A stretch of DNA of 52,157 nt from a virus (taxonomy: Duplodnaviria; Heunggongvirae; Uroviricota; Caudoviricetes): the IMG/VR virus record IMGVR_UViG_3300026549_000047, positions 1 through 52,157 of that record; one strand, written 5' to 3'. Below, piece after piece: positions 22,198-41,950 of this stretch. Under the pieces are notes generated by a model. That model saw only the letters and a list, made by a program, of their open reading frames with translations. It was not told where the DNA came from and made no database searches. How positions within the stretch are numbered: the stretch's first letter is position 1; each line of letters starts with the position of its first letter. Made by a program: the position numbers and the translations under genes.

Positions 22198-22250
22198 TTG
22201 TACATATACTGCATCCCGAAATCGTAATCCTCTTCTGATAAATTTTCATT

Positions 22251-22286
22251 AAAAGGAGGAACTCCGTAGCTACTCAAAGCTCCTCC
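22251..22286 (-). terminator. Probable terminator
   Basis: GGAGGA/TCCTCC stem followed by TTTT on the minus strand. Confidence 0.45.
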
Positions 22287-22396
22287 TCGGTTGTACAAAT
22301 GAAGTTTTATCAGAAAACATGATTTCTTCGTCAGTTTTCCTTTGTTCTCACAACTCGATCGAACGACCAGGCTCTTATTTCAAGACCACTGTGAGA

Positions 22397-22681: not shown

Positions 22682-22726
22682 AATCTGATCGAACAGTATA
22701 AGTCATATTTCAACTTAATTATGGGA
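22676..22726 (-). repeat. Three-way-junction element copy 1
   Basis: TCCCATAAT/ATTATGGGA stem, AAGT-loop-ACTT, CTG-TTCGAT-CAG, then GAACTA. Confidence 0.75.
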
Positions 22727-22753
22727 TTTATATTCACCTTGCCAAGTTTACGG

Positions 22754-22991: not shown

Positions 22992-23462
22992 CTACTTGAA
23001 ATCTATTAAAGGATTCTTTTTGACTTCTTTTTTATACTTCTTGAAGTCTACTATCTTCTTAGCCTCTTTATCCATGCCATTATTTTTGAAAGCTTTGTAC
23101 ATATCTACTACATCCCCCGTTTCGTCGGCATTAAAATACTGCCCATTTTTGCCAGGCTTAGACTTAGGGACTACTCTAGATTCTGCATAACCACCATGCC
23201 CTAATTGACGTTGAGTTCTTACAGCAGCTGCTTCTGAAAGTTCTCTTGAGGTTTTCTCGATACCCTTTTTAGATAACTTTCTATCAAGATTAACTGCCTC
23301 TTCTGCGACGATGTTGTGATGTCTTCCCTTTTCAGCAGCACTTTTTAGATGACCAAGATATCCTCCACCATTCTCTTTAGTTCCTATCTCTTTGAGTATA
23401 TTAGACTTCTTAACTAATTTGAATGCTCTAGAGGTGAATAATTTATTCCTCAATATAATCAT
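22992..23462 (-). CDS. Leader-bearing basic protein (MIILRNKLFT)
   Basis: 156 aa with leader. Confidence 0.8.
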   Translation of the reverse strand: MIILRNKLFTSRAFKLVKKSNILKEIGTKENGGGYLGHLKSAAEKGRHHNIVAEEAVNLDRKLSKKGIEKTSRELSEAAAVRTQRQLGHGGYAESRVVPKSKPGKNGQYFNADETGDVVDMYKAFKNNGMDKEAKKIVDFKKYKKEVKKNPLIDFK

Positions 23463-23503
23463 TTCTCTCCTTATACTGAGGGATTACTGTCAATTTTAGC
23501 TTT

Positions 23504-23545
23504 TTGCCCCCCCCCCCCAGTATTCAAATTTAAGTGGGAGAGCAA
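23504..23545 (-). promoter_or_regulatory. G12-tract hairpin 1
   Basis: C12 at 23507-23518 on the plus strand; TTGC/GCAA outer stem; 45 nt before the ATG at 23462. Confidence 0.65.
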
Positions 23546-23551
23546 CAGTTT

Positions 23552-23803
23552 TTATTTCATCAATCTAGAAATCTCCTTAGCGAATTCTTTATCTGACATC
23601 TTCGTAGCTTCTGCTCGACCAATTCGCTTTAAAGCAGCTTCTCTAGTATTCTTTACTTTGTCCGAGTTGTAGTGACCTGGCTTACTCCACTCATTGACCT
23701 TCTTTAAGTTAGAATCCAAAAACTCGACGGCTTTGGGTTTCATTCCTTTTATTCTTCTCTTTGCCAGGTCTTGAATAAAGTCTGCCTTTCGTTTAATGAT
23801 CAT
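23552..23803 (-). CDS. Leader-bearing small basic protein (MIIKRKADF)
   Basis: 83 aa. Confidence 0.7.
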   Translation of the reverse strand: MIIKRKADFIQDLAKRRIKGMKPKAVEFLDSNLKKVNEWSKPGHYNSDKVKNTREAALKRIGRAEATKMSDKEFAKEISRLMK

Positions 23804-23920
23804 ATCACCAACTCATCTTTAGACTTATTGATCGAACAGAACCAGTTGCCTTAGGAAGAATAAATTTTCTCCTAAGTATTCTACGAGCAGGTTCAAGTCG
23901 ACCAAAGAAGTTTTTAGTCA

Positions 23921-24415
23921 TTACTTCATAAGTTTATGTGCTGCCAATAATCCTCCAGCAACACCTATTGTACTTCCAACAAGACCTCCAGCTTTCGAAT
24001 AATTACCAGGATGCTTTTCTGGATTTGCTAGGACAGCTTTGTTCTGATTTATGAGACCATGAATTCCATTAATTATCTTCTGCTTATTTTTATTTAGAAG
24101 ATTATAGTCATATTCGTCGGGGTCATCCCAATTCATTCCATACTGGTTAAGAAATGGTAATATATCATCGTCGCTAGTTAGTTTTCCGATATTTCTACCA
24201 GAAATAGTATGAGTGTTAAGATATTTAATCAAATCCTCTCGGGATTTCAATTGATCCTTTTGAGATTTAATATCTTTCTCATTAAGTGGTTTCTTGAATT
24301 TAGCTCCAATTTTTTCACCAATCCGTCCACCAACTAAACCACCAGCTACATATCCAGTACCGTATCCTAATACTTTTCCAGTTGTTGAAAAGTTTTTATT
24401 TCTTAGGATTATCAT
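23921..24415 (-). CDS. Leader-bearing glycine-zipper protein (MIILRNKNFS)
   Basis: 164 aa; GxxxG segments at both ends. Confidence 0.8.
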   Translation of the reverse strand: MIILRNKNFSTTGKVLGYGTGYVAGGLVGGRIGEKIGAKFKKPLNEKDIKSQKDQLKSREDLIKYLNTHTISGRNIGKLTSDDDILPFLNQYGMNWDDPDEYDYNLLNKNKQKIINGIHGLINQNKAVLANPEKHPGNYSKAGGLVGSTIGVAGGLLAAHKLMK

Positions 24416-24854
24416 TTTTCTTCTCTTTTATTTTCTTAGCCAATTTAGAAGTGGCTCCAGCCCCAACCAAAGCAAGACTAGCAATCTGTGCTTTCTTCAT
24501 TCTCTGGAAGGGCTTATTTCTCCTAACTGTCCTTAAAGCCATTTCATAACCACGCTCAGCTTCTTTCTGTGCTAACTTTTTTGCCTTAGCTTTCAACGAG
24601 GCCTTGTACTTCTCTTCCTGACCAGTTGCTCTGGCCATTGCTAGGTCGATGGCGTCTGGTTTGATTGTTTTATGAACCTGTATATCATTTCCAACCCTCT
24701 TACCACCAACTTTTTCGGCTGCTTTATCGAGGGCCTTGTTTATGATATGTTTTTGAGCAATCCCCGTTCCAACAATTGTTCCGGCTCCTGCTGCAATGGC
24801 TACATTTTCAGCTTTATCTTTTTTAGAGAAGAATTTATCTCTAAGTATTATCAT
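24396..24854 (-). CDS. Leader-bearing basic protein (MIILRDKFFS)
   Basis: 152 aa; 20-bp overlap with the next leader. Confidence 0.8.
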   Translation of the reverse strand: MIILRDKFFSKKDKAENVAIAAGAGTIVGTGIAQKHIINKALDKAAEKVGGKRVGNDIQVHKTIKPDAIDLAMARATGQEEKYKASLKAKAKKLAQKEAERGYEMALRTVRRNKPFQRMKKAQIASLALVGAGATSKLAKKIKEKKNDNPKK

Positions 24855-24873
24855 TTATTTAACAAATATTTAA

Positions 24874-25638
24874 TTAAACCACTCTGCTATTCTTGACTAA
24901 CTTAATGGCGCTTAATAAACATTCACAATACTTTCTCATATCAAATCCAGTATCACCATATTTATTATCCCACGCATCTAATCTATTAGCTAGTAGTTTA
25001 TTGTACTTTGGGTCAAAATTGATTTCTATTGCCCCAAATAAGTCATTATCTTTTATTCTCCACTCTTTGCGAGGATTATATGTTCTATCTTGAACATACC
25101 ACGCTTTCCTATCGAAATCCCAAAGATAGACTAGTTCATTACCAAAGGTGAATAAAACTTCAGCATAATCACCAGCACCCTTAGCACTAGGATCTGACAT
25201 ATAGTCTTCTCTATATGATCTGATTTCTTCAGGTTTAGCCAACACCATAAAACTTGGGAAACATTTCCAGATAAACTTTTGCCCTTCCTCAGGAACAGAT
25301 TTCAAAATTCGAAAATTGTAAGAAGATAATGCTGCTAATTTAGCATATTCCTTAATCTCTTTACAATATTCGTTAAAATTAGCATCCATTGGTACGTCAG
25401 AAAATTTCTTTTCAAGAGGACCGTGATCACCTTTACTGTGATCATTGCTAGTACTACCTGTTGCTGAATGTTTTTCTTTGATACCTTTAATGAAACCAAC
25501 CATTGCACCAAGAATAGTTCCTGGCCATAAGAAGTATAATTTAGCGTTCCCGCCGATAGGTATTCTAGGAGTAAACTTCTTTGCCCAATCAACAGTACTA
25601 GACCAAATACTAAATTGTTTATTTCTTAGAATTACCAT
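24874..25638 (-). CDS. Leader-bearing protein (MVILRNKQFS) with a TM segment, an internal KKFS site and a globular C-terminal domain
   Basis: 254 aa. Confidence 0.8.
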   Translation of the reverse strand: MVILRNKQFSIWSSTVDWAKKFTPRIPIGGNAKLYFLWPGTILGAMVGFIKGIKEKHSATGSTSNDHSKGDHGPLEKKFSDVPMDANFNEYCKEIKEYAKLAALSSYNFRILKSVPEEGQKFIWKCFPSFMVLAKPEEIRSYREDYMSDPSAKGAGDYAEVLFTFGNELVYLWDFDRKAWYVQDRTYNPRKEWRIKDNDLFGAIEINFDPKYNKLLANRLDAWDNKYGDTGFDMRKYCECLLSAIKLVKNSRVV

Positions 25639-26209
25639 TTTTAGCCTCCTTCTTTTTCTCTTTAGCTAACCATTTATTAAAATCCTCGCTAGCCTGCTTG
25701 CGTCTTCCAAGTACGTCTGTTAAAGTCTCTTTACCTTGTTTTTCGTACTTCTTACCAAGACGCTTAGAGTTTGCATAACCGGCTACAGCAGCAGTAGTTG
25801 CTGCACCAATAGCAGCCCCGGCTTTATTGTTAGCTGCAATACCAGGGAGTGCTCCCAATGCTGCTCCTGCAACAGCTCCCGAGATAGCTCCACGCTTTGC
25901 TCCTTTTTTCTTAGCATAGGCGCTAGAGTCTTTGATAATTTTCTCATCAGATTCTACAATAGGACCATCTTTATGAAAAGCATTATCTATCTCCTTTACA
26001 TCTGCATGGCCTTTTGCTATTTTTCCGCCCTTCCCTGCTTTCTTAGTATCATAGCCGAAAATGAACAACGCTTGTTTTCCAGTTTTCTGATGCATTAAAT
26101 CGTTAGCAACCATTGCTGATCTAAAACCTGGATCGTTAGGAGATATCGTTCCATATTTTCCATCAGCTTTAATGTCCCTAGAGAACTTTTTATTTCTAAG
26201 TATAATCAT
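25619..26209 (-). CDS. Leader-bearing glycine-zipper protein (MIILRNKKFS)
   Basis: 196 aa; GAISGAVAGAALGALPG segment. Confidence 0.8.
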   Translation of the reverse strand: MIILRNKKFSRDIKADGKYGTISPNDPGFRSAMVANDLMHQKTGKQALFIFGYDTKKAGKGGKIAKGHADVKEIDNAFHKDGPIVESDEKIIKDSSAYAKKKGAKRGAISGAVAGAALGALPGIAANNKAGAAIGAATTAAVAGYANSKRLGKKYEKQGKETLTDVLGRRKQASEDFNKWLAKEKKKEAKNGNSKK

Positions 26210-26256
26210 CCCTTTTCTTAATCAGGAGAGGGAAGATTATTGTTTATTTCAGTTCC

Positions 26257-26295
26257 ATTACTCCCCCCCCCCCTTGTTTAAAGTTTGGGAGTAAT
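26257..26295 (-). promoter_or_regulatory. G11-tract hairpin 2
   Basis: C11 at 26263-26273; ATTACTCCC/GGGAGTAAT stem; 54 nt before the ATG. Confidence 0.65.
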
Positions 26296-26312
26296 TTCCT
26301 TTATTGTCCTAG

Positions 26313-26360
26313 TTCCTGTAGTCTAATCGAATAGTAGAACCTAATAGTTCGCTACAGGAA
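26313..26360 (-). repeat. Three-way-junction element copy 2
   Basis: TTCCTGTAG/CTACAGGAA stem, GAAC-loop-GTTC, CTA-TTCGAT-TAG. Confidence 0.75.
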
Positions 26361-26370
26361 ATTTTATAAT

Positions 26371-26883
26371 TTAATCTTTCTTAAATTTCTTTCTATTGCC
26401 AGTTACTTTGTCATAAAGACCAACACCCTGTGCAACAGTAGTACCTACACCACCGAAACTTCCGGTAAGTGCCTCTGCAGTACCTGCTAGAACTCGACCA
26501 GTACTGTGGTGCTTTCCCCTATTTTCGAGGTATTCACGAATCTCTTCAGTCGACTTTCCTTCCTCAGCCATCTGCTCGGCCTTCTTCTTTACGTAAGTTG
26601 AAACACCGGGAGCGAACAAGCCCTTGAGTGCATAACCAGCCCTCTTTTTCTTGTAGTCCTCCTTGTTATCGTAGCCATACTTAGCAGCTTCTTTAGCTTG
26701 ATAGCTACCGGGAGCAAGAAGTCCAAGTGCTTTAGATTTTGCACCATACTCTCTTTGCTCAAGTGTCTCGGAATAGAGTTTCAGATATTCCTCTTCTGTT
26801 ATGATAGAGTCAGCACTAAACAGCCTCTCCTCTCCAGTCTCTTCATCAATTGCTGAGAAGTAAACCTTTCTTTTAATTAACAT
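26371..26883 (-). CDS. Leader-bearing protein (MLIKRKVYFS) with internal RLFS and QREYG sites
   Basis: 170 aa. Confidence 0.8.
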   Translation of the reverse strand: MLIKRKVYFSAIDEETGEERLFSADSIITEEEYLKLYSETLEQREYGAKSKALGLLAPGSYQAKEAAKYGYDNKEDYKKKRAGYALKGLFAPGVSTYVKKKAEQMAEEGKSTEEIREYLENRGKHHSTGRVLAGTAEALTGSFGGVGTTVAQGVGLYDKVTGNRKKFKKD

Positions 26884-26921
26884 CTCTTTTAATTCAGTTC
26901 GGAGAGGGTGTGGTTATGTAT

Positions 26922-26967
26922 TGCTACTATCCCCCCCCCCGGTTAAACGAATTGAAGGGATGTAGCA
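26922..26967 (-). promoter_or_regulatory. G10-tract hairpin 3
   Basis: C10 at 26931-26940; TGCTAC/GTAGCA outer stem; 48 nt before the ATG. Confidence 0.65.
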
Positions 26968-26979
26968 TTTAATTAGTCT

Positions 26980-27456
26980 TTATTTCTTTTTCTTTCTTAG
27001 CTTTAGCGTCTGTTTTACGAGATTCTTCTTTCCCTCGATTTCATCGTTGGGAATATATCCATGATCGTATCCATAACGTGAATCTTTATTGGCGTTTTTC
27101 ATCAAAGATTTTGATATTCCTTCTCCTCGAGGACGACCTAGTGGACCTATTTCTTTGCCACCAAATATAGGTGATTGTTGACTTCTAATAGCCTGTGCAC
27201 CATTACCTAATTGACTGGCCCTAATATTTATCCTATCATCGACACTACGTTTGGCTGTTTTAAATGTTTTACTAATACGTCTACCTTCTTTACGGATAGC
27301 GTTACTTACATCTTCTATTTTCAAAGCCTCCTGTAACCGTCTTCTAGGTACATTTGTATCGATATTAGGAGAAGATAAGCCTTTCGCTAAATCATAGGCC
27401 TTTCTAAGGGCTTTTTGCGCTTTACTCGAAAACTCCTTATTTCGAAGTATAATCAT
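26980..27456 (-). CDS. Leader-bearing basic protein (MIILRNKEFS)
   Basis: 158 aa. Confidence 0.8.
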   Translation of the reverse strand: MIILRNKEFSSKAQKALRKAYDLAKGLSSPNIDTNVPRRRLQEALKIEDVSNAIRKEGRRISKTFKTAKRSVDDRINIRASQLGNGAQAIRSQQSPIFGGKEIGPLGRPRGEGISKSLMKNANKDSRYGYDHGYIPNDEIEGKKNLVKQTLKLRKKKK

Positions 27457-27493
27457 TCTCTCTTTTTGGTATCAGAGGGAGATGATTCTTTTG

Positions 27494-27543
27494 TTTACGG
27501 CCCCCCCCCCCGATACACAACTTTCAAAAAGGGAGACAGTAAA
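27494..27543 (-). promoter_or_regulatory. G11-tract hairpin 4
   Basis: C11 at 27501-27511; TTTAC/GTAAA outer stem; 45 nt before the ATG. Confidence 0.65.
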
Positions 27544-27550
27544 TTTTAAT

Positions 27551-28030
27551 TTAATTAGGCCTTACTTCCATTTTCATCCTACTAAGACCGTTCCAAGAGC
27601 TATTATCTAGTTCTCTTATGTCGCCAGTTTCTTTAAAACCTAGCTTTTCATAGATATGTTTAGCATCTGGAGCATTTCCTGGAACTTCTAACTCCAATAT
27701 TTTAAATTTCAACTCCTTAGCTAAACTTATGCACCACTCAATCACACTGGTAGCATATTTATTACCTCTATGACTTTTGTTAATATCAATCCAAGCGACT
27801 TCCATAGAGTCTTTTCCAGATTTTCTTAAGTGAAGACTTCCAATATTATTACCATCCTTTATAATACTGTAGTAGATAAAGTCTTCTGGTTTTTCCCGGA
27901 TTGATTGAACATATTTATTTAGAATTCTATGAGACTTAGGATAACTGCCCTTCACTAAACTAAGTCCATTAAGTAATTCTACTTTCTTAGGACACTTAAG
28001 GGCAAAGCATCCATTCCGCAATACTATCAT
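27551..28030 (-). CDS. GNAT-family acetyltransferase with leader (MIVLRNGCFA)
   Basis: Acetyl-CoA motif A (IDINKSHRGNKYAT) and motif B (AKHIYEKLGF). Confidence 0.8.
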   Translation of the reverse strand: MIVLRNGCFALKCPKKVELLNGLSLVKGSYPKSHRILNKYVQSIREKPEDFIYYSIIKDGNNIGSLHLRKSGKDSMEVAWIDINKSHRGNKYATSVIEWCISLAKELKFKILELEVPGNAPDAKHIYEKLGFKETGDIRELDNSSWNGLSRMKMEVRPN

Positions 28031-28055
28031 ATCTTAAGTCTCTTTAGTTATTAGT

Positions 28056-28099
28056 TCCCTGAGTTACATCGAAGCATAGACCTTTACGTCTCTCAGGGA
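28056..28099 (-). repeat. Three-way-junction element copy 3
   Basis: TCCCTGAG/CTCAGGGA stem, AGAC-loop-GTCT, TGC-TTCGAT-GTA (G.U pair on the minus strand). Confidence 0.75.
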
Positions 28100-28110
28100 T
28101 ATACTCTGTA

Positions 28111-28809
28111 TTAATTTTCCTTTTTCTTACCGAGTAACTTACTAGCACCGCCTGCCACAATGCTAGCAGCAGCTGCACCAGCGGCAATCTTTGTACCCTT
28201 ACCTGCATTACGGAAGGCATTGATTGCATTAGCCTTGTTAGCGATCTTAGCACTCTGACTCTTAGCCAGCTGTGCCACACGCTCAGTCGTGGCCTTAGAA
28301 GTTGCGTTTGTATTGGCAGCCTTGAGGTTAGCCTTACTGAGAATCTTATTGCCAGTTGAATCAGCAGTAGCCTTTAAACCTTTAGCAGCCTGGTAGCCAG
28401 TATAACCCAGAGCACCAGTTGCGCCTAGAGCAGTAGCAGTTGATGCATCCTCAGCTACGTCCTTAGCAGTCGAGAATAACTTCAGACGACCATTCTCAGA
28501 AAAATTCTTTTCCTTTTTCTTGTCCTTAGCTTTCTTAACTGCAACAGCGCCGGCCACAGTACCAGCTGCAATACCAGTAGCAATAGCAGTCTTCTTATTA
28601 GCCTTGGCAGTTTCAACAACAGCCTTAGCAGCTTTGGCTACACGACCTTTGAGAGTCTTAGACTGAGCAATCTCAGCCTGACGTGCGGTCTCTTTCTCAG
28701 CAGCCTCCTGTGCGAAACGCTGACGAGAACGATTGGAAGCAAGATTAACTTTTTTCTTGCCGCCACCTTTATTTTTTGTGCCGAATTCGGCCTGTTTAAG
28801 TACTAACAT
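28111..28809 (-). CDS. Leader-bearing Lys/Ala-rich two-module protein (MLVLKQAEFG)
   Basis: 232 aa; internal KNFSENGRLKLFS double site. Confidence 0.8.
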   Translation of the reverse strand: MLVLKQAEFGTKNKGGGKKKVNLASNRSRQRFAQEAAEKETARQAEIAQSKTLKGRVAKAAKAVVETAKANKKTAIATGIAAGTVAGAVAVKKAKDKKKEKNFSENGRLKLFSTAKDVAEDASTATALGATGALGYTGYQAAKGLKATADSTGNKILSKANLKAANTNATSKATTERVAQLAKSQSAKIANKANAINAFRNAGKGTKIAAGAAAASIVAGGASKLLGKKKEN

Positions 28810-28823
28810 GTATGTATGCTTTA

Positions 28824-29039
28824 TTAATGTTTGTTGGCATAGTATCCGCGAAGAGCCGCACTTGCTTTCTCCTTAGATTCATAGTGTGAATCCCAATAGA
28901 CGCCTTTCTTCCGGTTAATAATTCTCCATCGTCCCTCTCTATCCTGCTGGACAACACCACTTCGTTTGGCTTTCTCTAAGATATCTTCGGGGACTTTTTC
29001 TCGATCATCCGAGAACATTTTGCTTCTTAAGATTATCAT
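28824..29039 (-). CDS. Leader-bearing small protein (MIILRSKMFS)
   Basis: 71 aa. Confidence 0.75.
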   Translation of the reverse strand: MIILRSKMFSDDREKVPEDILEKAKRSGVVQQDREGRWRIINRKKGVYWDSHYESKEKASAALRGYYANKH

Positions 29040-29044
29040 ATCTT

Positions 29045-31096
29045 TTAAAATATATTTTCCAACATGCTCTGGAACTGTAGGTTAGAATCTTCTTTAGCTG
29101 ATTTAACCATATCAGTAACCAGGTGTAACTGTTTATCGACTCCATTCGAATATCCTTGTTCCTCACCAGCATCAATAGACATTTTCAGACTATAACAAGC
29201 TGAGGCAAGTGAATCCCAGACGTCCTTAGAGCCTTTTCCATTATTCCTATCAAAGACTTGCGGATTGTTTGTAGCCTTAGTCGGGTGATCTATCTTATAT
29301 CCCTTTCCCGTCGGTACATATCTTAAGTCATAGGCCTCTCTTTGAAGTCGTCTGTTTTCGGGTAATGAGATTAATCCCTGCATAATCAAGTTCTTCAGGT
29401 AGAGAGCTGGTTCACAAGGAACATTATCTGTTGAGATTCGCCCATTAGTCTTTATATTTTCACGCTCACAGTCTTGTAAGATTTGTTTTGAATATGCCTG
29501 GTCGGCTGATACTATAACATTATAATCTTTTTTCAAGGCCATAATTAGGTCAAAGACGTGATGCAAGCTTGTCTCCTGTCCATCTTTTCTCGCCACTGCC
29601 ACAGTGAAATAACATTTTACCTTAGGCATTTTTGAGTCTCCCATAAATTCCCAGTGATCAAACTGAACACAGCTTATTCCAGCATAGTCATTATTCGTTG
29701 CTAGGTCTAAGCCAATCCAAATAGAAGTCCCGAACGGAATCATGTCTATGGCGGGTTGAAGTTTATCTATAAGTCGATCTGTCTTATCGAAGAAATCAAC
29801 GGTTACGACTTCTGGAATGGGGTTCTTTATACCTCTACTACACTCCACCAACTTTTTAATTGATCCATTAAAGAATAGATCTGATGAACTTGTTGAGATA
29901 CCGCACTTATCTTGTAGCATCTTAATCAAGTTTTGTTTTGCCTCCACCTTAAGCTGGATAGGAACATTTATAACACGCTCAGGGTCTTGATCAAGGGCAA
30001 GTTTATAGCCTTCTGGTAAAATCTGAGCAGGGTATTTTCCATCACCAGTATAGACAGGAAACGTTACTCCTTTAGAATCAACATAATCTTGAGGCTTAAC
30101 AGCAAAATGTGTTGGGTGACAATAGTAAGTAAGCTCTCTAGGGGAATTATCTAGGAACCATTCAGTCGAGGAATTATCTCCTTTACTAGACGAGTCTATA
30201 ATGAGATTACCCACCATCTTAAGCGCTTGGGAATTGAAACGCGAAGTCATACGACCATAGGCCGACTCAACAATTCCCTGAGCTCTTTCTGGGTTAGGGT
30301 AGAAATTTAACTCACTTAGAATATAGCAATATTTATATCATGTTTGACACAACATTTGGAATATATCTTTAGCCAAAAGGCTAGTTAAGCACATATTCTC
30401 TAAACCAGGATTTCTGGCTTGGCATTAAGATTTATCTATTCGCCAAATTATCTAAACTGATTATCTACAGAGTTTCCCTTGTAGACGGCCAATTAAAACC
30501 AATACATCAGATCCCAGACCTACGCGTCCACCTAAAGGACCAGATGTAATAAATTGGAGTTTAAATTTCCTTTTAACGTTTTTGAAAAACGGAACTTTCA
30601 TCAATGCTTCATCCTTAAACCACTTAATAAACTCAGCGTATCCTACGTTTTCATCTCGATGGGTCACAACGAAGGAAAAGGGTTTAGGGACGAGGTGAAG
30701 AGTTTTAGAAGGGTTTTTCATACAGAGAAGTCTTGCATAACAATTAGCCATGCAAAGTCTCGAAACTGTAGATTTGCCAATTCCTATGGCTCCCGATAGT
30801 ATTAGAAACGGATATGCTGTGGTCACCTCGGATGGAAATATCTTTGGTAACTCATCTCTCCAAAACTTATATATAGATCTACCACCATCAAAGAAATCAG
30901 CACTTCCTAGGTAGTAGTCATCAGAGTATAATTGTTCTATTGTTGGAGGCATTCTGTTATACCCATTTACCTTCAAAAATACTAACTTTTTCTCTCTTTC
31001 TGATAAATTTGTATATTGTGTTTGAAAAGTTATCCCAGCTAGTTCATCCGTCAGATCCCTAGAAGGATCAAATTGATCTATAAACTTCTGGTTCAT
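29045..31096 (-). CDS. terL: Terminase large subunit, two exons: 31096-30498 and 30326-29045, 626 aa spliced
   Basis: Walker A ILSGAIGIGKST; splicing rebuilds the Walker B region DVLVYILSE; RNase H-like WIGLDLAT and KDVWDS motifs. Exon lengths 599+1282 nt = 627 codons. Confidence 0.85.
30327..30497 (-). ncRNA. Small ORF-less group I intron (171 nt) in terL
   Basis: P1 GGU/GCC; P2 with GAAA loop; P4 UUGGC/GCCAA; P7 GAAUAU/AUAUUC; P8 UAGCC/GGCUA; terminal G; frame restored. Confidence 0.8.
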
Positions 31097-31124
31097 AATC
31101 TTTAATAATTAAATTTATACTAGC

Positions 31125-31175
31125 TCCTACAGTCCTATCGAAAGGTATCAAGCTTATTTCACTCAAACTGTAGGA
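31125..31175 (-). repeat. Three-way-junction element copy 4 (upstream of terL)
   Basis: TCCTACAGT/ACTGTAGGA stem, TGAAATA loop, CCT-TTCGAT-AGG. Confidence 0.7.
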
Positions 31176-31183
31176 TTTATTCT

Positions 31184-31282
31184 TTAACCTCTATTCTTCA
31201 TCCTCTCGACAATGTAATTTTTATAGTCCTCCAATGTCTTCTCAGCAGGAATAGGAACAGGTTTCTTATTTTTCTTTGCCAT
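31184..31282 (-). CDS. 32-aa basic peptide (MAKKNKKPVPIPAEK...)
   Basis: Translated by hand; fills the gap upstream of terL. Confidence 0.45.
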   Translation of the reverse strand: MAKKNKKPVPIPAEKTLEDYKNYIVERMKNRG

Positions 31283-31296
31283 ACTTAAAATTATTT

Positions 31297-31779
31297 TTAA
31301 GCCAAATCTTTTCCAGATTTATACCACGTGTAATAGCTATTATATGTACAGAAGAAGTCTTCTGGCCATTTAAAGTTCTGAGTATACAGGGCTCTAGCAT
31401 AAGAGGAAATTTTAGTATCTTTAGAGAAAACTAGTACAACAGCACTAGCACCCTCTTTTCCATTGACATTATCTTTATAGGAAAGAGGATGGATTTCAGT
31501 TAATGTACCACCCTTTTCGAAAAACTTATTTCTTTGCATCCACTCAGTAAACGTTTCCCAACCACCATTTGGCTCTTTATCAGAAGATTTGATATGAACA
31601 ACCACTAAGGCTGGCCAATAATCTTGTTCATAACCCTCTTTAAAAGTTATTTCACTATAAACTACTGGCTTCTTTGGTGCCGACGATTTATCCATAACCT
31701 CTTTCTGAGATTTTCCAGCAGAAAAGAGATTCTTGATAGTTCCCAACAAAGAGAACTCTTTATTTCTTAAAACTATCAT
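31297..31779 (-). CDS. Leader-bearing protein (MIVLRNKEFS)
   Basis: 160 aa. Confidence 0.8.
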   Translation of the reverse strand: MIVLRNKEFSLLGTIKNLFSAGKSQKEVMDKSSAPKKPVVYSEITFKEGYEQDYWPALVVVHIKSSDKEPNGGWETFTEWMQRNKFFEKGGTLTEIHPLSYKDNVNGKEGASAVVLVFSKDTKISSYARALYTQNFKWPEDFFCTYNSYYTWYKSGKDLA

Positions 31780-31780
31780 A

Positions 31781-32386
31781 TTAGTACTTCTGATATTTAA
31801 CCCAAGACTTTATATCCTTAACTTCCTCCGGTTCAAGCATTTCTGAATCAATAGAAACATACTTACCAGTCTTTGTATCGAACATCAAATTAGAATAGTC
31901 TCCATCTGAGGATATAGGTAAGTATCGGCCTTTCTCTAGACCGCCATCTTCAAACCACCCAATGTCTCCAGGATTTTCATCAGAATAGTATCCAAGGTCT
32001 CCGAGATCTTTTAGCTGTCTTGCTTGTGATGGATATTTCTTCAGGAACTCTTTATAACTAATTGGAAGATTTTTGGTTCTCCTATTAAAATCATTTTTAC
32101 GATAGTTATTATTTTTCTCATCTATCGCTTTATTGATTTTATCTATTCTCTTGTTCCTAGCTAAGTACATTCCTGTTGCTGCACCAAGGCCAGCACCTAT
32201 TTTAGCCGCACTTGTAGCAACTCTAGAATTACCAGTTAAAGCACCAAGAGTAAATCCACCGACAGCTCCTATTCCAGAAGTAATCCCTATTGTGCCTATC
32301 CTTTGGGCCGGAGAATATTTTCCTTCGTACTTACCTGTTCTGGGATCATACTTTAAGGAGAAGTTTTTATTTCTTAGAATTATCAT
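31781..32386 (-). CDS. Leader-bearing glycine-zipper protein with SMI1/KNR4 (SUKH)-like C-terminal domain (start MIILRNKNFS at 32386)
   Basis: LPISYKEFL...YLPISSDG...MFDTKTGKYVSID pattern. Confidence 0.65.
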   Translation of the reverse strand: MIILRNKNFSLKYDPRTGKYEGKYSPAQRIGTIGITSGIGAVGGFTLGALTGNSRVATSAAKIGAGLGAATGMYLARNKRIDKINKAIDEKNNNYRKNDFNRRTKNLPISYKEFLKKYPSQARQLKDLGDLGYYSDENPGDIGWFEDGGLEKGRYLPISSDGDYSNLMFDTKTGKYVSIDSEMLEPEEVKDIKSWVKYQKY

Positions 32387-33050
32387 CCTTCTCTTCCTTC
32401 TCTTTCTTCTTCCGGTCAATCTTTTTCTTTACCTTGTAGGCAACAATTCCAGCAGTACCGACACCAGCAATTACATTAGTAGCTCTTTCTTCGTTATTCT
32501 TACCTAACTTGTTTAAGAGTGTCTCTTTCTTGCTTGGCTTCTTAGGCTGAGGTTCTGATGCACTATTTGGTTTTGCGTTTTTGGGCTGATGTTCATTCCA
32601 TACTCCGCCTTTACCTTTCTGACGACCACCAGTTCTCATAGTTTCCCATCGACTCTGGTTAACTCCAACAGTACCAGCACCACCATCAGAAACTATTGCA
32701 TTATCTCCATACTTATTCAAAGGCTCTTTTCCTTTAGTTGGCCCTGAAATAATAGCTTTCGTATTTATGTTATGGTTTACATTTCTCTTTCCACTGAGAA
32801 CTGCATCAGATGCAATATCTATGTTTTTAGATGGATCCTTCGGGTGAATAACTTTTCCTGCTCCACCGTGAGCATCAATCACGTTCTTCAGACGGAATAC
32901 ATGTTTCTCATCACCAGGCCCAAGATTAATGCCAGTATTCTTATATATTTTATCACCGATTTTGCGACCCTCAGCTGCTTCCCAAGCCTTTTTCATAGCT
33001 CTGTTGGCAGCTTTTACTCGGCCAAACTCTTTCTGTCTTATAACAATCAT
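32367..33050 (-). CDS. Leader-bearing basic protein (MIVIRQKEFG)
   Basis: 227 aa; 20-bp overlap with the next leader. Confidence 0.8.
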   Translation of the reverse strand: MIVIRQKEFGRVKAANRAMKKAWEAAEGRKIGDKIYKNTGINLGPGDEKHVFRLKNVIDAHGGAGKVIHPKDPSKNIDIASDAVLSGKRNVNHNINTKAIISGPTKGKEPLNKYGDNAIVSDGGAGTVGVNQSRWETMRTGGRQKGKGGVWNEHQPKNAKPNSASEPQPKKPSKKETLLNKLGKNNEERATNVIAGVGTAGIVAYKVKKKIDRKKKEKEEKDDNSKK

Positions 33051-33101
33051 CTTTCCTTGTCCTTTTCTTAGGGAGAGGAAGTATTGTTATATCACTTTAT
33101 C

Positions 33102-33140
33102 GATCACCCCCCCCCCTATTGCTAGAAAATTGGGATGATC
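33102..33140 (-). promoter_or_regulatory. G10-tract hairpin 5
   Basis: C10 at 33107-33116; GATCA/TGATC outer stem; 57 nt before the ATG. Confidence 0.65.
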
Positions 33141-33146
33141 AACACT

Positions 33147-33551
33147 TTATTTCATTAAATACTTAACCCAAGCGAACGGTTTGCGTCCTTTCAAGTAGGT
33201 TAAGTCATTTTCATTTGTATATGCCTCTTGTTCGAAAGCCACCTTTCTATATGGCTTCTCCTGTCTGATGATCCACTTCCTCACTGCATACTCTAAGCCA
33301 TACCATATAAAGTATACGAAAGGAGCAGCGAACATCCACCATGGGGACATGACATGGAATACGACACTCAGGAGGAATAGAATAATCAGAGAAACTATAA
33401 GCACCTCTAATTGCTGATAGCCATGAATAGTTTCATGATTCTTATCCTCTGCCGTTAATTCTCTAGCACTTTCTCGAACAAACAAGAACGGCCATATACA
33501 TGTTGCAAGAAATCCCTTGAAGGGAATAATATCGTTACGTACTTCTATCAC
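33147..33551 (-). CDS. Membrane protein with HExxH zinc-peptidase-like motif (no leader)
   Basis: NHETIHGYQQ, two hydrophobic helices, FEQEAY; GTG start. Confidence 0.65.
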   Translation of the reverse strand: MIEVRNDIIPFKGFLATCIWPFLFVRESARELTAEDKNHETIHGYQQLEVLIVSLIILFLLSVVFHVMSPWWMFAAPFVYFIWYGLEYAVRKWIIRQEKPYRKVAFEQEAYTNENDLTYLKGRKPFAWVKYLMK

Positions 33552-33709
33552 TTGTTGTGTAAGTAGTGAATACCATAGAGAATACCAACCAATGGCCAGA
33601 TAGCAGCAAAGCCAATCTTTTCAATGGTAGTATGCGACCAATTCTTCATCTTGTTGTAGGCGAAAACAGCGCCTAGCACATACAGTGCTATAAGAATAAT
33701 TGTAATCAT
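33548..33709 (-). CDS. 53-aa two-TM membrane protein
   Basis: Translated by hand: MITIILIALYVLGAVFAY...FAAIWPLVGILYGIHYLHNK. Confidence 0.6.
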   Translation of the reverse strand: MITIILIALYVLGAVFAYNKMKNWSHTTIEKIGFAAIWPLVGILYGIHYLHNK

Positions 33710-33724
33710 ATTATTTATTTTTAT

Positions 33725-34003
33725 TTAGTTTTGTATTACTACTTCATGGTAATAATACCCACATTTATCACAAACCCAATTGTGTCCTGCACTTCCAGTT
33801 ATCGCATTGGGACAAAGTGTATCAAAGTCTTCTAAGTGATAATGACTTTTCCCACAGACTGGACAAACCCAACGGGCGCTTTTTATATACTTACCGTTTT
33901 CCTGTAATTCTGGTGATAAAGCCTCCTCTTTATCGGAGGTATAGGAAACAACAAGATCAAAAGGAAGCAAGTGACAATGCATGAGTAATGTACTATTATC
34001 CAT
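33725..34003 (-). CDS. Zinc-ribbon protein
   Basis: CPVCGK...CDKCGY. Confidence 0.65.
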   Translation of the reverse strand: MDNSTLLMHCHLLPFDLVVSYTSDKEEALSPELQENGKYIKSARWVCPVCGKSHYHLEDFDTLCPNAITGSAGHNWVCDKCGYYYHEVVIQN

Positions 34004-34046
34004 TGTTATGTGTCTCCTTTAAATTAGTTTAGTTTGGTATTAGAGT

Positions 34047-34096
34047 TCCCATAACTGCTTCGATGCATAGAGACGTATTTCATCTCAGTTATGGGA
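34047..34096 (-). repeat. Three-way-junction element copy 5
   Basis: TCCCATAACT/AGTTATGGGA stem, GAGA-TGAAATACG-TCTC, GC-ATCGAA-GC. Confidence 0.7.
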
Positions 34097-34115
34097 TTTA
34101 TAGGGTATGATAAGA

Positions 34116-34634
34116 TTATTTCTTTTTATTATCTTTTAGAGATTTTGCAACTAAAGCAGAGCCTGTAGCAATACCACCGGCCGCTAAAGCTATATTCTTC
34201 TTGTTATGTTTAGCAACATATTCTAAGCCTGCTTTCTTGCCAAACTTATTAGCCAGTTTATCTGCAACTACGCCAGCTTTTACTGACTTTTTGGCGTCGT
34301 TTTCTAGTTTTCGAACTTTCAAGACACCTTTAATTTTATCTTTTATACTAGCCGGGCTTTTTAATATAGCCTTCTTAGCTTCCTTGGCTTGTTTAGAAAC
34401 CTCTTTCTGGGTGTCTATAATTTCCTTCTCACCGGCTTTTGCACTCTTATATGCTTCGGTATCTTTAATATAGTCCTTAGCACCTTCTTTAACACCTTCA
34501 TAGGTTCCGTGAACTATTCCAGCATTGGCACCACCTACTCCGAGAGCAGTAAGACCGGCACCATAAGTAGCTAGACGCTTCTTATCAATTTTCTTCTTTT
34601 CTTCTGAAAAGTTTTTATCCCTCAATATAATCAT
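34116..34634 (-). CDS. Leader-bearing Lys/Ala/Gly-rich protein (MIILRDKNFS)
   Basis: 172 aa. Confidence 0.8.
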   Translation of the reverse strand: MIILRDKNFSEEKKKIDKKRLATYGAGLTALGVGGANAGIVHGTYEGVKEGAKDYIKDTEAYKSAKAGEKEIIDTQKEVSKQAKEAKKAILKSPASIKDKIKGVLKVRKLENDAKKSVKAGVVADKLANKFGKKAGLEYVAKHNKKNIALAAGGIATGSALVAKSLKDNKKK

Positions 34635-34676
34635 TTTATTCTCTCCTACTGAGGGAAGATTATTATTCTCTTACAC

Positions 34677-34718
34677 ACGTCCCCCCCCCCCAGTATCGAT
34701 TCTAAACGAGGGAAACGT
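34677..34718 (-). promoter_or_regulatory. G11-tract hairpin 6
   Basis: C11 at 34681-34691; ACGT/ACGT outer stem; 47 nt before the ATG. Confidence 0.65.
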
Positions 34719-34736
34719 CTTTTTCATTCTCTTAGT

Positions 34737-34787
34737 TCTCCTAGTCGTATCGAAACGTAGAACCAATGTTGTTTGTTCGCTAGGAGA
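34737..34787 (-). repeat. Three-way-junction element copy 6
   Basis: TCTCCTAG/CTAGGAGA stem, GAAC-loop-GTTC, CGT-TTCGAT-ACG. Confidence 0.75.
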
Positions 34788-34790
34788 TTA

Positions 34791-35267
34791 TTATTCTTTT
34801 TCTTTCTCTGCTCTCTTTCTAAGACGTGCTTTAGTCTGTACGCCAGCTGATGCACGACCACCTATTCCACCTAAGATAGCCCCAACTGTACCAGTTACGC
34901 CAGCACCTTGGGCCATGTTCTTAGCAGTTCTCTTGGTAACTTCTTGCTGAACGCCTTTACCAATGGTCTTCCAGGCTTTACCTTTTGGTGCCATCACAGC
35001 ACCCGTTACAGCGGCAATAGCTCCGCCACTAAGTGCACCAACATTCCGACCAGCCTTCTTGGCACGATCTATAATCTCTATGTCACGCGCACCTTCTTCG
35101 TCAGCTTTATCGGCAGCTTTCTTACCGGCCTTGCGACCAAAATAAGCACCACCAAAACTGGCCTTAGAGGTAATCGCTGTTCGAACCATACCACGATTAG
35201 ACTTAACGTCTTTCAGAGAAACTTTCTTCTCATCCTTAGAGAAGTTCTTATCACGTAGTAATATCAT
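34791..35267 (-). CDS. Leader-bearing glycine-zipper protein (MILLRDKNFS)
   Basis: 158 aa. Confidence 0.8.
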   Translation of the reverse strand: MILLRDKNFSKDEKKVSLKDVKSNRGMVRTAITSKASFGGAYFGRKAGKKAADKADEEGARDIEIIDRAKKAGRNVGALSGGAIAAVTGAVMAPKGKAWKTIGKGVQQEVTKRTAKNMAQGAGVTGTVGAILGGIGGRASAGVQTKARLRKRAEKEKE

Positions 35268-35521
35268 TTCTTTACTTTCTTCTTGCCATGAAGCACCTTC
35301 AGTGGCTTAGTATAACCTTTGATTCGGTTTCTCCATCTACTGGAAGCTTTATCAACGACGGGATGTATTCCTTCCGTTCTGTCTAAGGCATCGTCAAGAA
35401 TATCTGCTGTTCTGACTATGCCATCATCAATATCCTGCTTAAGTTGAGCAGAACCTTGTTTATAGCTAGTCCCAAAAATGGGTTGATAGCCAGAATAGTT
35501 TTTATTCCTAAGAATTACCAT
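35264..35521 (-). CDS. Leader-bearing small protein (start MVILRNKNYS at 35521)
   Basis: An internal ATG gives the leader. Confidence 0.75.
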   Translation of the reverse strand: MVILRNKNYSGYQPIFGTSYKQGSAQLKQDIDDGIVRTADILDDALDRTEGIHPVVDKASSRWRNRIKGYTKPLKVLHGKKKVKK

Positions 35522-35654
35522 AAATATCAATTCAAAGCCTTATATATGTAACAAACTAACTAATAATAACTATGATTAGTTTTATTGAATACATCAGGCA
35601 ATTAATAAGTCGTTGGATGACTTGTAGCCGGGAGGATGGGCCCAAAGTAGTGGG

Positions 35655-36428
35655 TTAATCCTCTTTCTTTTTCTTCTTCCTGGCAACTTTGTATGAGATA
35701 CCTCTACTAAGCTCCCCTAGTCCAGCATTCATAGCTGTCTGAGTTCCATATGTACCCCAAAGAGAACCCAATTGTACACCAGACTTTAAGAGTTGCCCTT
35801 TCTTAGCTCCTGCACCTTTCAGGTATCTAAGTCCTTTAGCACTAGCGGCTGCCTCAGAAACCAGCATAGGAGAAGCAACAAGTACTGGTGCTGCCCAGGC
35901 GGCATGACGAATAACCTTATTCTCTTGTTTTCCTTGTTCTTCTGCTTTAGCCTTAGCAATTCCACTACCTATTCCGGCTATGATAGCAGCGTTTTGTGAA
36001 TGTCCAGCAAAACCATAAGTACCACCACCTCCTAAATAAACCTTGTGGGCAGCCTTACCTATTCTAGTGCCAGCACCTCTTTCTACATCAAAGTGTGCAT
36101 GACCTAGTTCGTGAGCAATTTCACTTGGATTGTAAGAACCATTTCTAAAGACGGTTCCTTTTCCGTATGCAGGACCAGGAATTCCTCCACTCTCAGGAGA
36201 AACTTTAATTCCTCTCTTTTCAGCTTCAGCTACCAACCTGTCAGAAAGTGCTTGTTGTTCTGGGGAATATACTCTGTTGTCGCCCTTGATCTGCCTAATC
36301 ATTATAGGTGCAGCAAGAGCCGAATTAGCAATAAAAGAACCACCTAGGATAGCAGCTCCTCGCTTTATATCTTTATTATCTTTCTTCTTCTCGTCCTTAG
36401 AGAAGTTCTTATCACGTAGTAATATCAT
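35655..36428 (-). CDS. Leader-bearing zinc metallopeptidase-like protein (MILLRDKNFS)
   Basis: IAHELGHAH zinc motif plus downstream EAAAS third-ligand segment; hydrophobic helices. Confidence 0.7.
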   Translation of the reverse strand: MILLRDKNFSKDEKKKDNKDIKRGAAILGGSFIANSALAAPIMIRQIKGDNRVYSPEQQALSDRLVAEAEKRGIKVSPESGGIPGPAYGKGTVFRNGSYNPSEIAHELGHAHFDVERGAGTRIGKAAHKVYLGGGGTYGFAGHSQNAAIIAGIGSGIAKAKAEEQGKQENKVIRHAAWAAPVLVASPMLVSEAAASAKGLRYLKGAGAKKGQLLKSGVQLGSLWGTYGTQTAMNAGLGELSRGISYKVARKKKKKED

Positions 36429-36443
36429 ATACCTCTTCTTAAT

Positions 36444-36476
36444 CTCCCCCCCCCCCCGTTTAAAACGGAAAGGAAG
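36444..36476 (-). promoter_or_regulatory. G12-tract hairpin 7
   Basis: C12 at 36446-36457, pairing with CTTCCTTTCC; 18 nt before the ATG. Confidence 0.6.
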
Positions 36477-36558
36477 AAGGAAGAGATATTTTAATTAGAA
36501 TTTTGCAATTTATTTAATCGCTATGCCCTATAAGTGTAGGTAAATTAATTTTAAACCT

Positions 36559-40767: not shown

Positions 40768-41478
40768 TCAACATGTTTTATAAGAATCGTTTGAGGTAAT
40801 TAGAATTTTAGCTTTTTGGAAAAGCTTAATAGGTTTATCGTATAAAAGTTCATCTTTATCTGTTGGTATAATTTCAAGCTTAGAATCATCTTTAGGTTTG
40901 TAGACATAATATTCTTTACCTACTTTTTTATTCTCTAAGTTTTTAACAGCATCACTTATACTTTTGTAAAATTTAATTTCCGGTTTAAGTGTAATAGAAC
41001 TTTTATTTTCATCAGTTACCCAAACCACCTTCGATGTCTTCCTCTCGCGAGTCAGGTCAGACCATGACCACTTAGGAAAAGACTTCGTGACAAGTCTGGG
41101 CGTATATTGTTTTAAAATATTGTCCTTGATTTTTCGATTTACTCTGACCTTAGTAACTAATTTTAACCTAGTTGTAGTAAGACACCAAACCTCCTGTGTT
41201 TCCTGGAAAGGATTTTCAGTAGGGCTCGGATATGTCTTCGATAAAGGATTAATTCGTCCGACGGGTTCATAGATGTAAACTACTTTTCCAGTCAATCCTT
41301 CGCCCAAACCACTAATAGCTAGGTCTATGCTTGGATAGAAAGTTGTCCTAGGAAGTTTCGTTTTTCCTAAACCCCTCTTTGAAGCTTCATCGTTGGGGAC
41401 CATCGGAATCATGACATCTCTGTCAAGGTCAGAATGCAGAGAAGCCAAATAGAGTTTTTGATTTCTAAGTATTATCAT
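40768..41478 (-). CDS. Leader-bearing protein with a duplicated ADP-ribosyltransferase-like (Arr-like) domain (MIILRNQKLY)
   Basis: FYPSIDLAISGL...VYIYEPVG...ETQEVW, repeated as FYKSISDAVKNL...YYVYKP...ELL. Confidence 0.5.
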   Translation of the reverse strand: MIILRNQKLYLASLHSDLDRDVMIPMVPNDEASKRGLGKTKLPRTTFYPSIDLAISGLGEGLTGKVVYIYEPVGRINPLSKTYPSPTENPFQETQEVWCLTTTRLKLVTKVRVNRKIKDNILKQYTPRLVTKSFPKWSWSDLTRERKTSKVVWVTDENKSSITLKPEIKFYKSISDAVKNLENKKVGKEYYVYKPKDDSKLEIIPTDKDELLYDKPIKLFQKAKILITSNDSYKTC

Positions 41479-41703: not shown

Positions 41704-41950
41704 CCGGAAGACAGTTTTGTCTCACATATAAGGTTTTCGTTATTTTTGGGCCAAAAAAAGTGGGGGAAAATGGGTACTTTTGACCCTCTAGGACCCCAAA
41801 ACTGCCACAAATCCCCCACCCTCCCCAAAATACCTTCCAGAAACTGACAATTTGGCAGAAAAACAAAAAGAAAGGGGCTCGATTTATCTCAAACCAAGTC
41901 CCTTCAATATGGCTTCAAAAGACCCAAAAGATCTTCCACCTTTAAGGATT

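Follow-up and report, generated by a model that had tools for sequence, protein, structure and literature searches.

Length-variable poly-G tracts in 5' hairpins ahead of leader-cargo genes of a Jug-like jumbo phage: a candidate hypermutable expression dial

The viral record IMGVR_UViG_3300026549_000047 (IMG/VR, 122 kb; CheckV completeness about 33%) is a fragment of a Jug-like jumbo phage of the gut or rumen. Its first 52 kb (52,157 nucleotides, nt), which form the whole stretch analysed here and are designated 'the window', contain seven tracts of 10 to 12 G, each located in the 5' untranslated region (UTR) of a gene composed of a short shared leader and an interchangeable cargo. We propose, with a probability of roughly 55%, that these tracts are a hypermutable 5'-UTR expression dial on the cargo cassettes. 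The tract would be the 3' arm of a conserved sense-RNA hairpin that heads a leader-plus-cargo gene or a short operon, and selection would keep the G homopolymer as an element made hypermutable by strand slippage (9 to 12 nt, mode 11). With the register held by the covarying outer stem, length would set the stability of the hairpin, and the tract would act as a heritable, reversible and graded dial on a single cassette, either via the stability of the mRNA 5' end or via access to the start region. In sister lineages, the hairpin module would have moved into the leader open reading frame (ORF), giving a strict ON/OFF switch of the frame.

Every gene in the tract-bearing part of the window lies on the minus strand; all seven tracts, which read as C-runs on the plus strand, are therefore G-runs in the sense strand. 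Their plus-strand coordinates are 23507-23518 (12 nt), 26263-26273 (11 nt), 26931-26940 (10 nt), 27501-27511 (11 nt), 33107-33116 (10 nt), 34681-34691 (11 nt) and 36446-36457 (12 nt), and each site is designated below by its first position. A preliminary description, made from the sequence alone, had reported seven C-runs of 10 to 12 nt at these places with no comparable run elsewhere in the window. This proved to be the case: overlapping C9 matches number 21 in the window, against 0.13 expected from shuffles, and no other G or C run of at least 7 nt is present in it. Over the 122-kb record, the spectrum of G/C runs is bimodal, with a single run of length 6 (about 9 expected), none of 7 or 8 nt, and nine of 9 to 12 nt; runs of 5 to 8 nt are depleted elsewhere in the genome. 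In all nine tracts of the record, G lies on the sense strand of the local genes. The distance from the tract end to the leader ATG is 44 to 56 nt at six sites and 17 nt at the seventh (36446), matching the 45 to 57 nt, and 18 nt in one case, given earlier.

The leader was found on about twenty genes between 22.9 and 37.4 kb of the window, with starts of the MI[ILV]LR type (pattern MI[ILV]LR[ND]K.F). Within the window, the G elements are confined to intergenic gaps, each heading one to four tightly packed leader genes. Pfam searches on ten leader proteins gave one GNAT domain and weak Gly-zipper matches, and nothing else; the cargo is hypervariable and mostly orphan.

Tract lengths were read from 16 non-redundant assemblies of the same lineage (IMG, ENA and Logan), in which the exon of the large terminase, TerL, is 99 to 100% identical. 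The seven elements recur across these assemblies. Among 49 orthologous instances, 46 have a pure tract (G9 in 6, G10 in 12, G11 in 20 and G12 in 8), so that the mode is G11; the remaining three, all from a single lineage, have GGGGTGGGGG at the ortholog of 27501. Between L036 and L039, tract length is unequal at two sites with identical flanks. Contigs end exactly at tracts five times (L016, L039, L110, L114 and L116), which is the effect expected in an assembly graph from length heterogeneity within a sample or from read dropout at long G-runs. As judged from these assemblies, tract length appears to change much faster than the flanking DNA.

It is very improbable that the tracts or their length differences are mere artefacts of sequencing or assembly. 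Illumina sequencing is error-prone on long G-runs, and contigs break there. Yet each of the seven sites was seen again in assemblies of many samples, from IMG, ENA and Logan alike, and they are therefore not assembly artefacts, which disposes of a refutation foreseen in the preliminary description; for the existence of the tracts, this explanation is effectively refuted. Moreover, the interrupted variant was reproduced in three assemblies, lengths differ beside identical flanks, and the in-ORF lengths of 7, 10 and 12 described below exceed typical miscalls.

An IMG/VR scan for G9 followed 36 to 60 nt later by a leader-type start revealed further Jug-like lineages with the same architecture and unrelated sequences. 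In a lineage of 31% GC, represented by two records of about 200 kb, every G-run of at least 8 nt (three in one record, two in the other) lies 32 to 44 nt upstream of a leader ORF. Seven contigs of this lineage share 2.4 kb of flanks that are identical but for one indel shift (0 to 1 mismatch), and they carry G9 in four cases and G10 in three, both lengths being present within single metagenomes.

Copies of the module were also encountered inside leader ORFs of a sister lineage. Two paralogous leader genes of L011 have an insert of 34 to 35 nt directly after codon 6, with the design TATC-CTCTC-A-Gn-A-GATA, as in the UTR hairpin module, and their assembled sequence is out of frame; in L010, a plain G8 follows codon 13, again out of frame. 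A change of 1 or 2 nt at these in-ORF tracts opens ORFs of 211, 240 and 291 amino acids (aa). At one of the loci, locus A, the gene is OFF with G11 (L011) or G9 (L119 and L120) and ON with G10 (L121 and L125; 214 aa). At the other, locus B, it is OFF with G12 (L011) and ON with either G10 (L119 and L120; 240 aa) or G7 (L121 and L125; 239 aa). The two loci thus show three ON/OFF combinations among five genomes with identical flanks and independent assemblies. As read from these frames, the in-ORF copies would represent classic contingency-locus behaviour of the same module, and the UTR tracts appear to be evolutionarily continuous with the in-ORF switch. The phase variation suggested in the preliminary description is supported indirectly by these ON/OFF relatives, by lengths of 9 to 12 beside identical flanks, and by the 46 uninterrupted instances out of 49. 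In L030 and L024, around 16820-16860, an A7 run occupies codons 6 to 8 of a leader gene whose body is one base out of frame in both. This gene is a homolog of the G-tract-headed gene of L013, which suggests that homopolymer frame switching on leader genes may not be limited to G.

The sequences around the tracts evolve very unevenly. Between close relatives, the 5' arm and loop of the hairpin have 0.5% mismatches, compared to 3.9% in coding sequence (P = 1e-7) and 4.2% in the spacer (P = 2e-4 against 5' arm and loop); the 3' arm has 4.9%. Behind one and the same head, four alternative cargos were found at 33107 (after MIVIRQKEF), three or four at 27501, and two each at 34681, 26263 and 23507. 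Comparing 22992-36428 with L009, L015 and L036 to L040, where the TerL exon is 99 to 100% identical, the UTR element and a leader of about 10 aa are shared and the bodies are wholly different, the heads forming islands of near-identity between divergent genes. Since the hairpin is conserved and the cargo is swapped, UTR element and leader together constitute a conserved cassette head placed before hypervariable cargo. Such swapping is typical of diversifying host-interaction genes. In L036 (11534-12967), and also in L039 to L041, a 477-aa ORF that the window does not have lies between two leader genes; it gives faint helix-turn-helix and TnsD-like matches. Within the cargo block, this ORF could represent a mobile or homing element.

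That the tract belongs to a genuine RNA fold is indicated by several observations. Folded alone, the hairpin is more stable than its shuffles at all seven sites, with z between -2.6 and -6.2. Since MAFFT left the variable loops (3 to 23 nt) out of structural register, a flank-swap energy test was used in place of a covariance model: the 9-nt 3' flanks were exchanged among 15 distinct elements, nine from this genome and six from relatives. An element's own 3' flank was better by 3.7 kcal/mol on average and ranked first in 7 of the 15 (permutation P < 1e-4). These two results bear out the earlier claim of a hairpin that has the G-run as its 3' arm and whose outer pairs covary. In the orthologous pair L014/L018, the outer stem has changed from CACAC/GTGTG to AATAC/GTATT with the inner core kept. 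Among 20 distinct elements, the sense fold beats the antisense fold by 8.8 kcal/mol, with 3 to 7 G.U pairs in each, and this energy gap and the G.U pairs would fit a structure of the sense RNA. By these energy models, the hairpin appears to be under selection. No Rfam family matched anywhere in the window at the gathering threshold.

In the sense direction, the layout begins with an upstream stop codon or another intergenic element, followed by an outer-stem arm of 4 to 7 bp, a pyrimidine C-box, an A/T-rich loop, the G tract, and the matching outer-stem arm; then come a spacer of 20 to 30 nt with a CCCTC-type box (six sites), a purine block and the ATG. At most sites, only 3 to 6 C's are on offer for the upstream pairing. 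The box was correctly reported at six of the seven sites. Its claimed pairing with the purine-rich segment before the ATG was predicted at 26263, 26931, 27501 and 33107; at 23507 and 34681, the predicted partner is instead leader codons 3 to 5, a pairing that puts the ribosome-binding site (RBS) and the ATG in a loop.

The individual elements, all on the minus strand, are as follows. Hairpin 1 (23500-23548) has the outer stem TTGC/GCAA, kept in relatives through G.U pairs, a TCTCCC arm and a G12 tract (23507-23518; orthologs G10 to G12), followed by the pyrimidine box TCCCTC (23478-23483) and the ATG at 23462. Hairpin 2 (26257-26295; outer stem ATTACT/AGTAAT, CCC arm) has a G11 tract at 26263-26273, with orthologs from G9 to G12, and AAAAGGGA, ahead of the ATG at 26209, is the predicted partner of its box TCTTCCCTCTCCT (26224-26236). 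Hairpin 3 (26922-26967) combines the outer stem TGCTAC/GTAGCA and a CCC arm with a G10 tract called as the C-run 26931-26940; its box is CCCTCTCC (26901-26908) and the ATG lies at 26883. Orthologs of this gene in two deeply diverged lineages have an element upstream as well. In hairpin 4 (27494-27543), with outer stem TTTAC/GTAAA and a TCTCCC arm, the G11 tract (27501-27511) has orthologs of G10 or G11 besides the GGGGTGGGGG interruption seen in three assemblies of one lineage, and for the box TCTCCCTCT (27474-27482) the predicted partner is AGAGAGA, ahead of the ATG at 27456. Hairpin 5 (33098-33144; outer stem GATCA/TGATC, TCCC arm) has a G10 tract at 33107-33116, for which 12 orthologs divide into G9 (four), G10 (four), G11 (three) and G12 (one); pairing of its box CTTCCTCTCCCT (33070-33081) is predicted with the purine block before the ATG at 33050. 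Hairpin 6 (34675-34720) has the outer stem ACGT/ACGT, a TTTCCCTC arm, a G11 tract (34681-34691; orthologs G10 to G12) and the box TCTTCCCTC (34651-34659), whose predicted pairing with leader codons leaves the RBS and the ATG at 34634 in the loop. Finally, hairpin 7 (36442-36487) has the outer stem ATCT/AGAT, a 19-nt pyrimidine 5' arm and a G12 tract (36446-36457; G11 in the orthologs of five assemblies), and the ATG at 36428, 17 nt on, starts a 257-aa protein beginning MILLRDKNFS. This cargo (35655-36428, minus strand) carries an HELGH motif (HExxH, as in zinc metalloproteases) with no Pfam match, and is the only one of the seven left unchanged in all relatives.

Two further hairpins of the same C-box, loop and G-run design, with G9 or G10, lie outside the window at 81529-81537 and 112572-81 of the record (plus strand), and neither precedes a leader gene. 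For one of them the setting is an intergenic region of 540 nt, with a 108-aa ORF starting 89 nt downstream. The second comes 24 nt ahead of the stop of a 182-aa ORF, and a canonical terminator hairpin follows it at about 45 nt.

The hairpin might also be a cis-regulatory RNA that acts by its structure alone (stabilising the 5' end, marking a processing site or coupling translation in the cargo mini-operons), in which the G-run is a convenient arm able to pair with any pyrimidine and its length tolerated noise. The covarying outer stems and the highly conserved 5' arm and loop would be expected from such an RNA, as would the position of the elements, right after upstream stops or a three-way-junction-like element and at the head of mini-operons; in addition, lengths stay in a narrow band of 9 to 12, and predicted RBS access is insensitive to length at most sites. 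A perfect homopolymer, however, would be unnecessary for a structural arm, and yet pure G7 to G12 is used throughout in over 20 independent elements whose loops are unrelated, facing only 3 to 6 upstream C's at most sites. G/C runs of 5 to 8 are depleted elsewhere, and the same module placed in ORFs acts through its length. These facts argue for selection of the homopolymer as such; the hypermutable dial is thus ranked first and the structural hairpin second, as a possible but rather unlikely explanation, with a fold toggle and DNA-level roles next.

The consequences of tract length were modelled by partition-function folding of each leader from G4 to G16, considering nested structures. The stability of the hairpin has a sharp optimum at exactly G11 at four sites (34681, 33107, 27501 and 26931), where G10 or G12 costs 1.2 to 4.1 kcal/mol, and this optimum coincides with the natural mode, G11. 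At 36446, stability grows with tract length. The sharp peak at four sites suggests that tuning may be graded.

The same folds bear on the mechanism put forward in the preliminary description, namely that tract length picks either the upstream C-box or the downstream CCCTC box as partner, thereby opening or closing the start region. In minimum-energy folds, the partner of the tract is indeed the upstream one at some sites and the downstream one at the rest, and the succession of C-box, G-run, box and purine block recalls an attenuator of four segments. The topology would permit an H-type pseudoknot, and with the quadruplex option of ViennaRNA a two-layer G-quadruplex is predicted from G11 upward. 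Within the natural range of G9 to G12, however, the partner changes at only two of the seven sites (26263 and 27501, between G10 and G11), access barely moves, and downstream pairing lowers access to the start region, the sign being opposite to the one proposed. There is no downstream box at 36446 or in several elements of relatives. The quadruplex energy is probably an overestimate, and we retain the quadruplex as a speculative lead only. A related 'sum rule', by which tract length would equal the upstream C-box plus the downstream box, found no fixed relation on direct inspection of the sequences. Taken together, these results make a toggle improbable.

Several points weigh against a hypermutable expression dial as well. 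Mean accessibility of the RBS and start (-14 to +3) is nearly flat over G9 to G12 at five of the seven sites, and hairpin stability is flat with length at 26263 and 23507. The host belongs to the Bacteroidota and the genes of this phage mostly do without a Shine-Dalgarno (SD) sequence, so that a route from a structure 44 to 56 nt upstream to initiation is hard to see. The sense/antisense asymmetry is partly inherent to any G-run amid U-rich sequence, and sequencing difficulty at long G-runs could partly cause the length differences between assemblies and the contig breaks. Lastly, it is from folding models and from the in-ORF relatives that we infer both an effect of UTR tract length on expression, as phase variation of these genes would require, and its route.

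A change of register in an upstream ORF (uORF) was considered as another way for length to act. At 36446, 33107 and 26263, no ATG, GTG or TTG start opens a frame through the tract, and an ATG-initiated uORF runs through it at two sites only of the seven. Since three of the seven sites have no start codon for such a frame, this mechanism is not general.

The tracts might also act at the level of DNA, as a promoter or terminator used by one of the multisubunit RNA polymerases of the phage itself, or as a replication-stalling hotspot aiding cassette exchange. Orientation strictly follows transcription, the loop is conserved among orthologs, and cargo swaps begin right behind the heads. In 7 of 15 elements, A[AT]AC adjoins the tract on its 5' side, compared to a 3% background, and CTAATTAAA occurs three times in 122 kb, each time just upstream of a G hairpin. 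These three copies (26968-26976, 27550-27558 and 36490-36498, minus strand) overlap upstream stop codons, and may be a junction or promoter-like motif or reflect mere paralogy. Against a DNA signal, the covariation of the outer stems and the use made of G.U pairs speak for sense RNA, loops vary from 3 to 23 nt with no motif common to all elements, and recombination at conserved heads needs no homopolymer. The jumbo-phage promoter consensuses (late AACA-N6-TA/G of AR9, late TATG of phiKZ, and the AT-rich early one; PMC7598289) gave no match. Nor was a consistent match seen by eye to a host sigma promoter spanning the tract, with -33 TTTG and -7 TAnnTTTG as the Bacteroides consensus, and the spacing does not suit one. 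The hairpin is followed by no U-tract and is therefore not an intrinsic terminator; its 3' flanks are A/G-rich, its loops 9 to 19 nt in the window, and a terminator scan picked up none of these elements on the minus strand. For an antisense terminator, the T-rich sequence of the plus strand is explained by AT-rich composition, and there are no converging genes here. A DNA-level role is thus unlikely.

More specifically than a dial in general, the element may be a dedicated RNA rheostat of jumbo gut phages, a version to which we give only tentative credence. The outer stem would clamp the register, and each slipped G would shift the structure off the G11 optimum or across a G11 quadruplex or pseudoknot threshold, setting the translation or the mRNA half-life of one injected-cargo cassette. 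Each genome would possess at least seven independent dials, transplantable into a leader ORF as a binary switch. If this were so, cargo doses would vary combinatorially within a phage burst, which would thereby be hedged against the diversity of host defences.

The history of the element was traced through more distant lineages. Three deeply diverged lineages carry a G element upstream of the gene family behind 26931 (...FSAIDEETGEERLFS), so this element is old. In lineages whose TerL is about 52% identical, no tracts were found, and the leader genes are packed without UTRs; since some lineages have no tracts, the element has been gained and lost. An IMG/VR scan for a leader followed by a G-run returned three Jug-lineage loci already known, its other 13 matches being unrelated chance occurrences.

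Among bacteria, simple repeats are a textbook means of phase variation, and intergenic homopolymers serve it at the porA and opc promoters of Neisseria and the fim promoters of Bordetella. To our knowledge, few cases of phage phase variation by simple repeats have been shown, all with the tract inside a gene. Campylobacter bacteria have intergenic G/C homopolymers that cause phase variation via promoter spacing (PMC8355987). As in such bacterial loci, the homopolymer of the present phage lies upstream of an ORF; expression there is graded and multi-level, and a graded effect is what our models lead us to expect here. Unlike the bacterial tracts, which act via the spacing of promoter elements on double-stranded DNA with no strand preference, the tract here is an RNA hairpin arm with an absolute bias for one strand, and flanking promoter elements were looked for without success.

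The closest published system would seem to be the hypermutable polyG tracts within genes of Campylobacter phages (Fletchervirus; Sorensen et al. 2021, Cell Rep 35:109214, cited in PMC12823448), of which the present case would be a variant. Both are uninterrupted phage G tracts whose length varies between otherwise identical genomes, which in Campylobacter phages creates phenotypic diversity, and the in-ORF copies of our sister lineage would likewise act by shifting the reading frame. The seven tracts here differ in being located in 5' UTRs, 17 to 56 nt upstream of the ATG, with in-ORF copies only in the relatives L010 and L011. Other differences are the covarying RNA hairpin, the association with leader-plus-cargo cassettes rather than receptor-binding genes, and the Bacteroidota jumbo-phage setting. 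The UTR-hairpin form of a phage poly-G tract appears to be undescribed.

A third parallel is offered by the internal-protein (IP) loci of T-even phages, in which, as Repoila and colleagues are said to have described in EMBO J in 1994, a conserved promoter, RBS and capsid-targeting leader stand before shuffled ORFs. Both systems place a conserved regulatory head and a short N-terminal leader before hypervariable proteins, and cassette exchange between close relatives was seen here. The T4 IP loci differ in having no homopolymer or hairpin switch; the proteins here are presumed to be packaged in the virion.

Jumbo phages of a very abundant group in gut and rumen carry five to nine candidate hypermutable tracts per genome, mostly in a structured 5' UTR and tied to one class of genes, those with a short shared leader and interchangeable, mostly orphan cargo. 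If tract length tunes expression, lineages would diversify their products, perhaps the packaged or injected set, at constant gene content, and the reading of host range and anti-defence repertoires from metagenomes would be affected. For annotation, the seemingly frameshifted genes of L010 and L011 would be switched off rather than dead, and contigs are to be expected to break at tracts. Again provided that length tunes expression, the hairpin with Gn could become a compact natural part for graded expression control in Bacteroidota systems.

Jug jumbo gut phages, for which over 1,500 genomes are published, have genomes of 360 to 402 kb and infect Bacteroides and Phocaeicola; their description makes no mention of homopolymers, promoters or the leader (PMC12880540). 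Megablast of the tract region against GenBank phages gave no match, and no tRNA or tmRNA was found. An SD-like sequence, counted where the anti-SD duplex reaches -5 kcal/mol or lower, precedes only about 8% of 104 non-leader genes of the record, a scarcity consistent with a host from the Bacteroidota. The seven G-run genes differ from the rest of the record in their unusually purine-rich upstream sequence; the purine block may serve mainly as the pairing partner of the CCCTC box. A phage-encoded ribosomal protein S21, sought as a link to SD-like blocks, was not found in the 122-kb fragment, which is about one-third of the genome.

A second intergenic element, unrelated to the G hairpins, has a three-way-junction-like fold with a TTCGAT loop and ends in ...GGGAAC or ...GGAGAAC. 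It occurs on the minus strand at 22198-22396, 22682-22753, 26300-26370, 28031-28110, 31097-31296, 34004-34115 and 34730-34790, and precedes the G hairpins 2 (26263) and 6 (34681). Another G-rich sequence, the interrupted block GGGGAGGGTGGGGGA at 41812-41826 (minus strand), is followed by GGGG about 16 nt on, between the genes 41951-42544 and 40768-41478. It has no relation to leader genes and could form a G-quadruplex. The large terminase is encoded in two ORFs, 30461-31096 and 29045-30250, separated by a gap of about 210 nt (30251-30460) that resembles the small group I introns of the phage; in the relatives L036 and L037, extra ORFs (DUF723) lie in the region of this gap.

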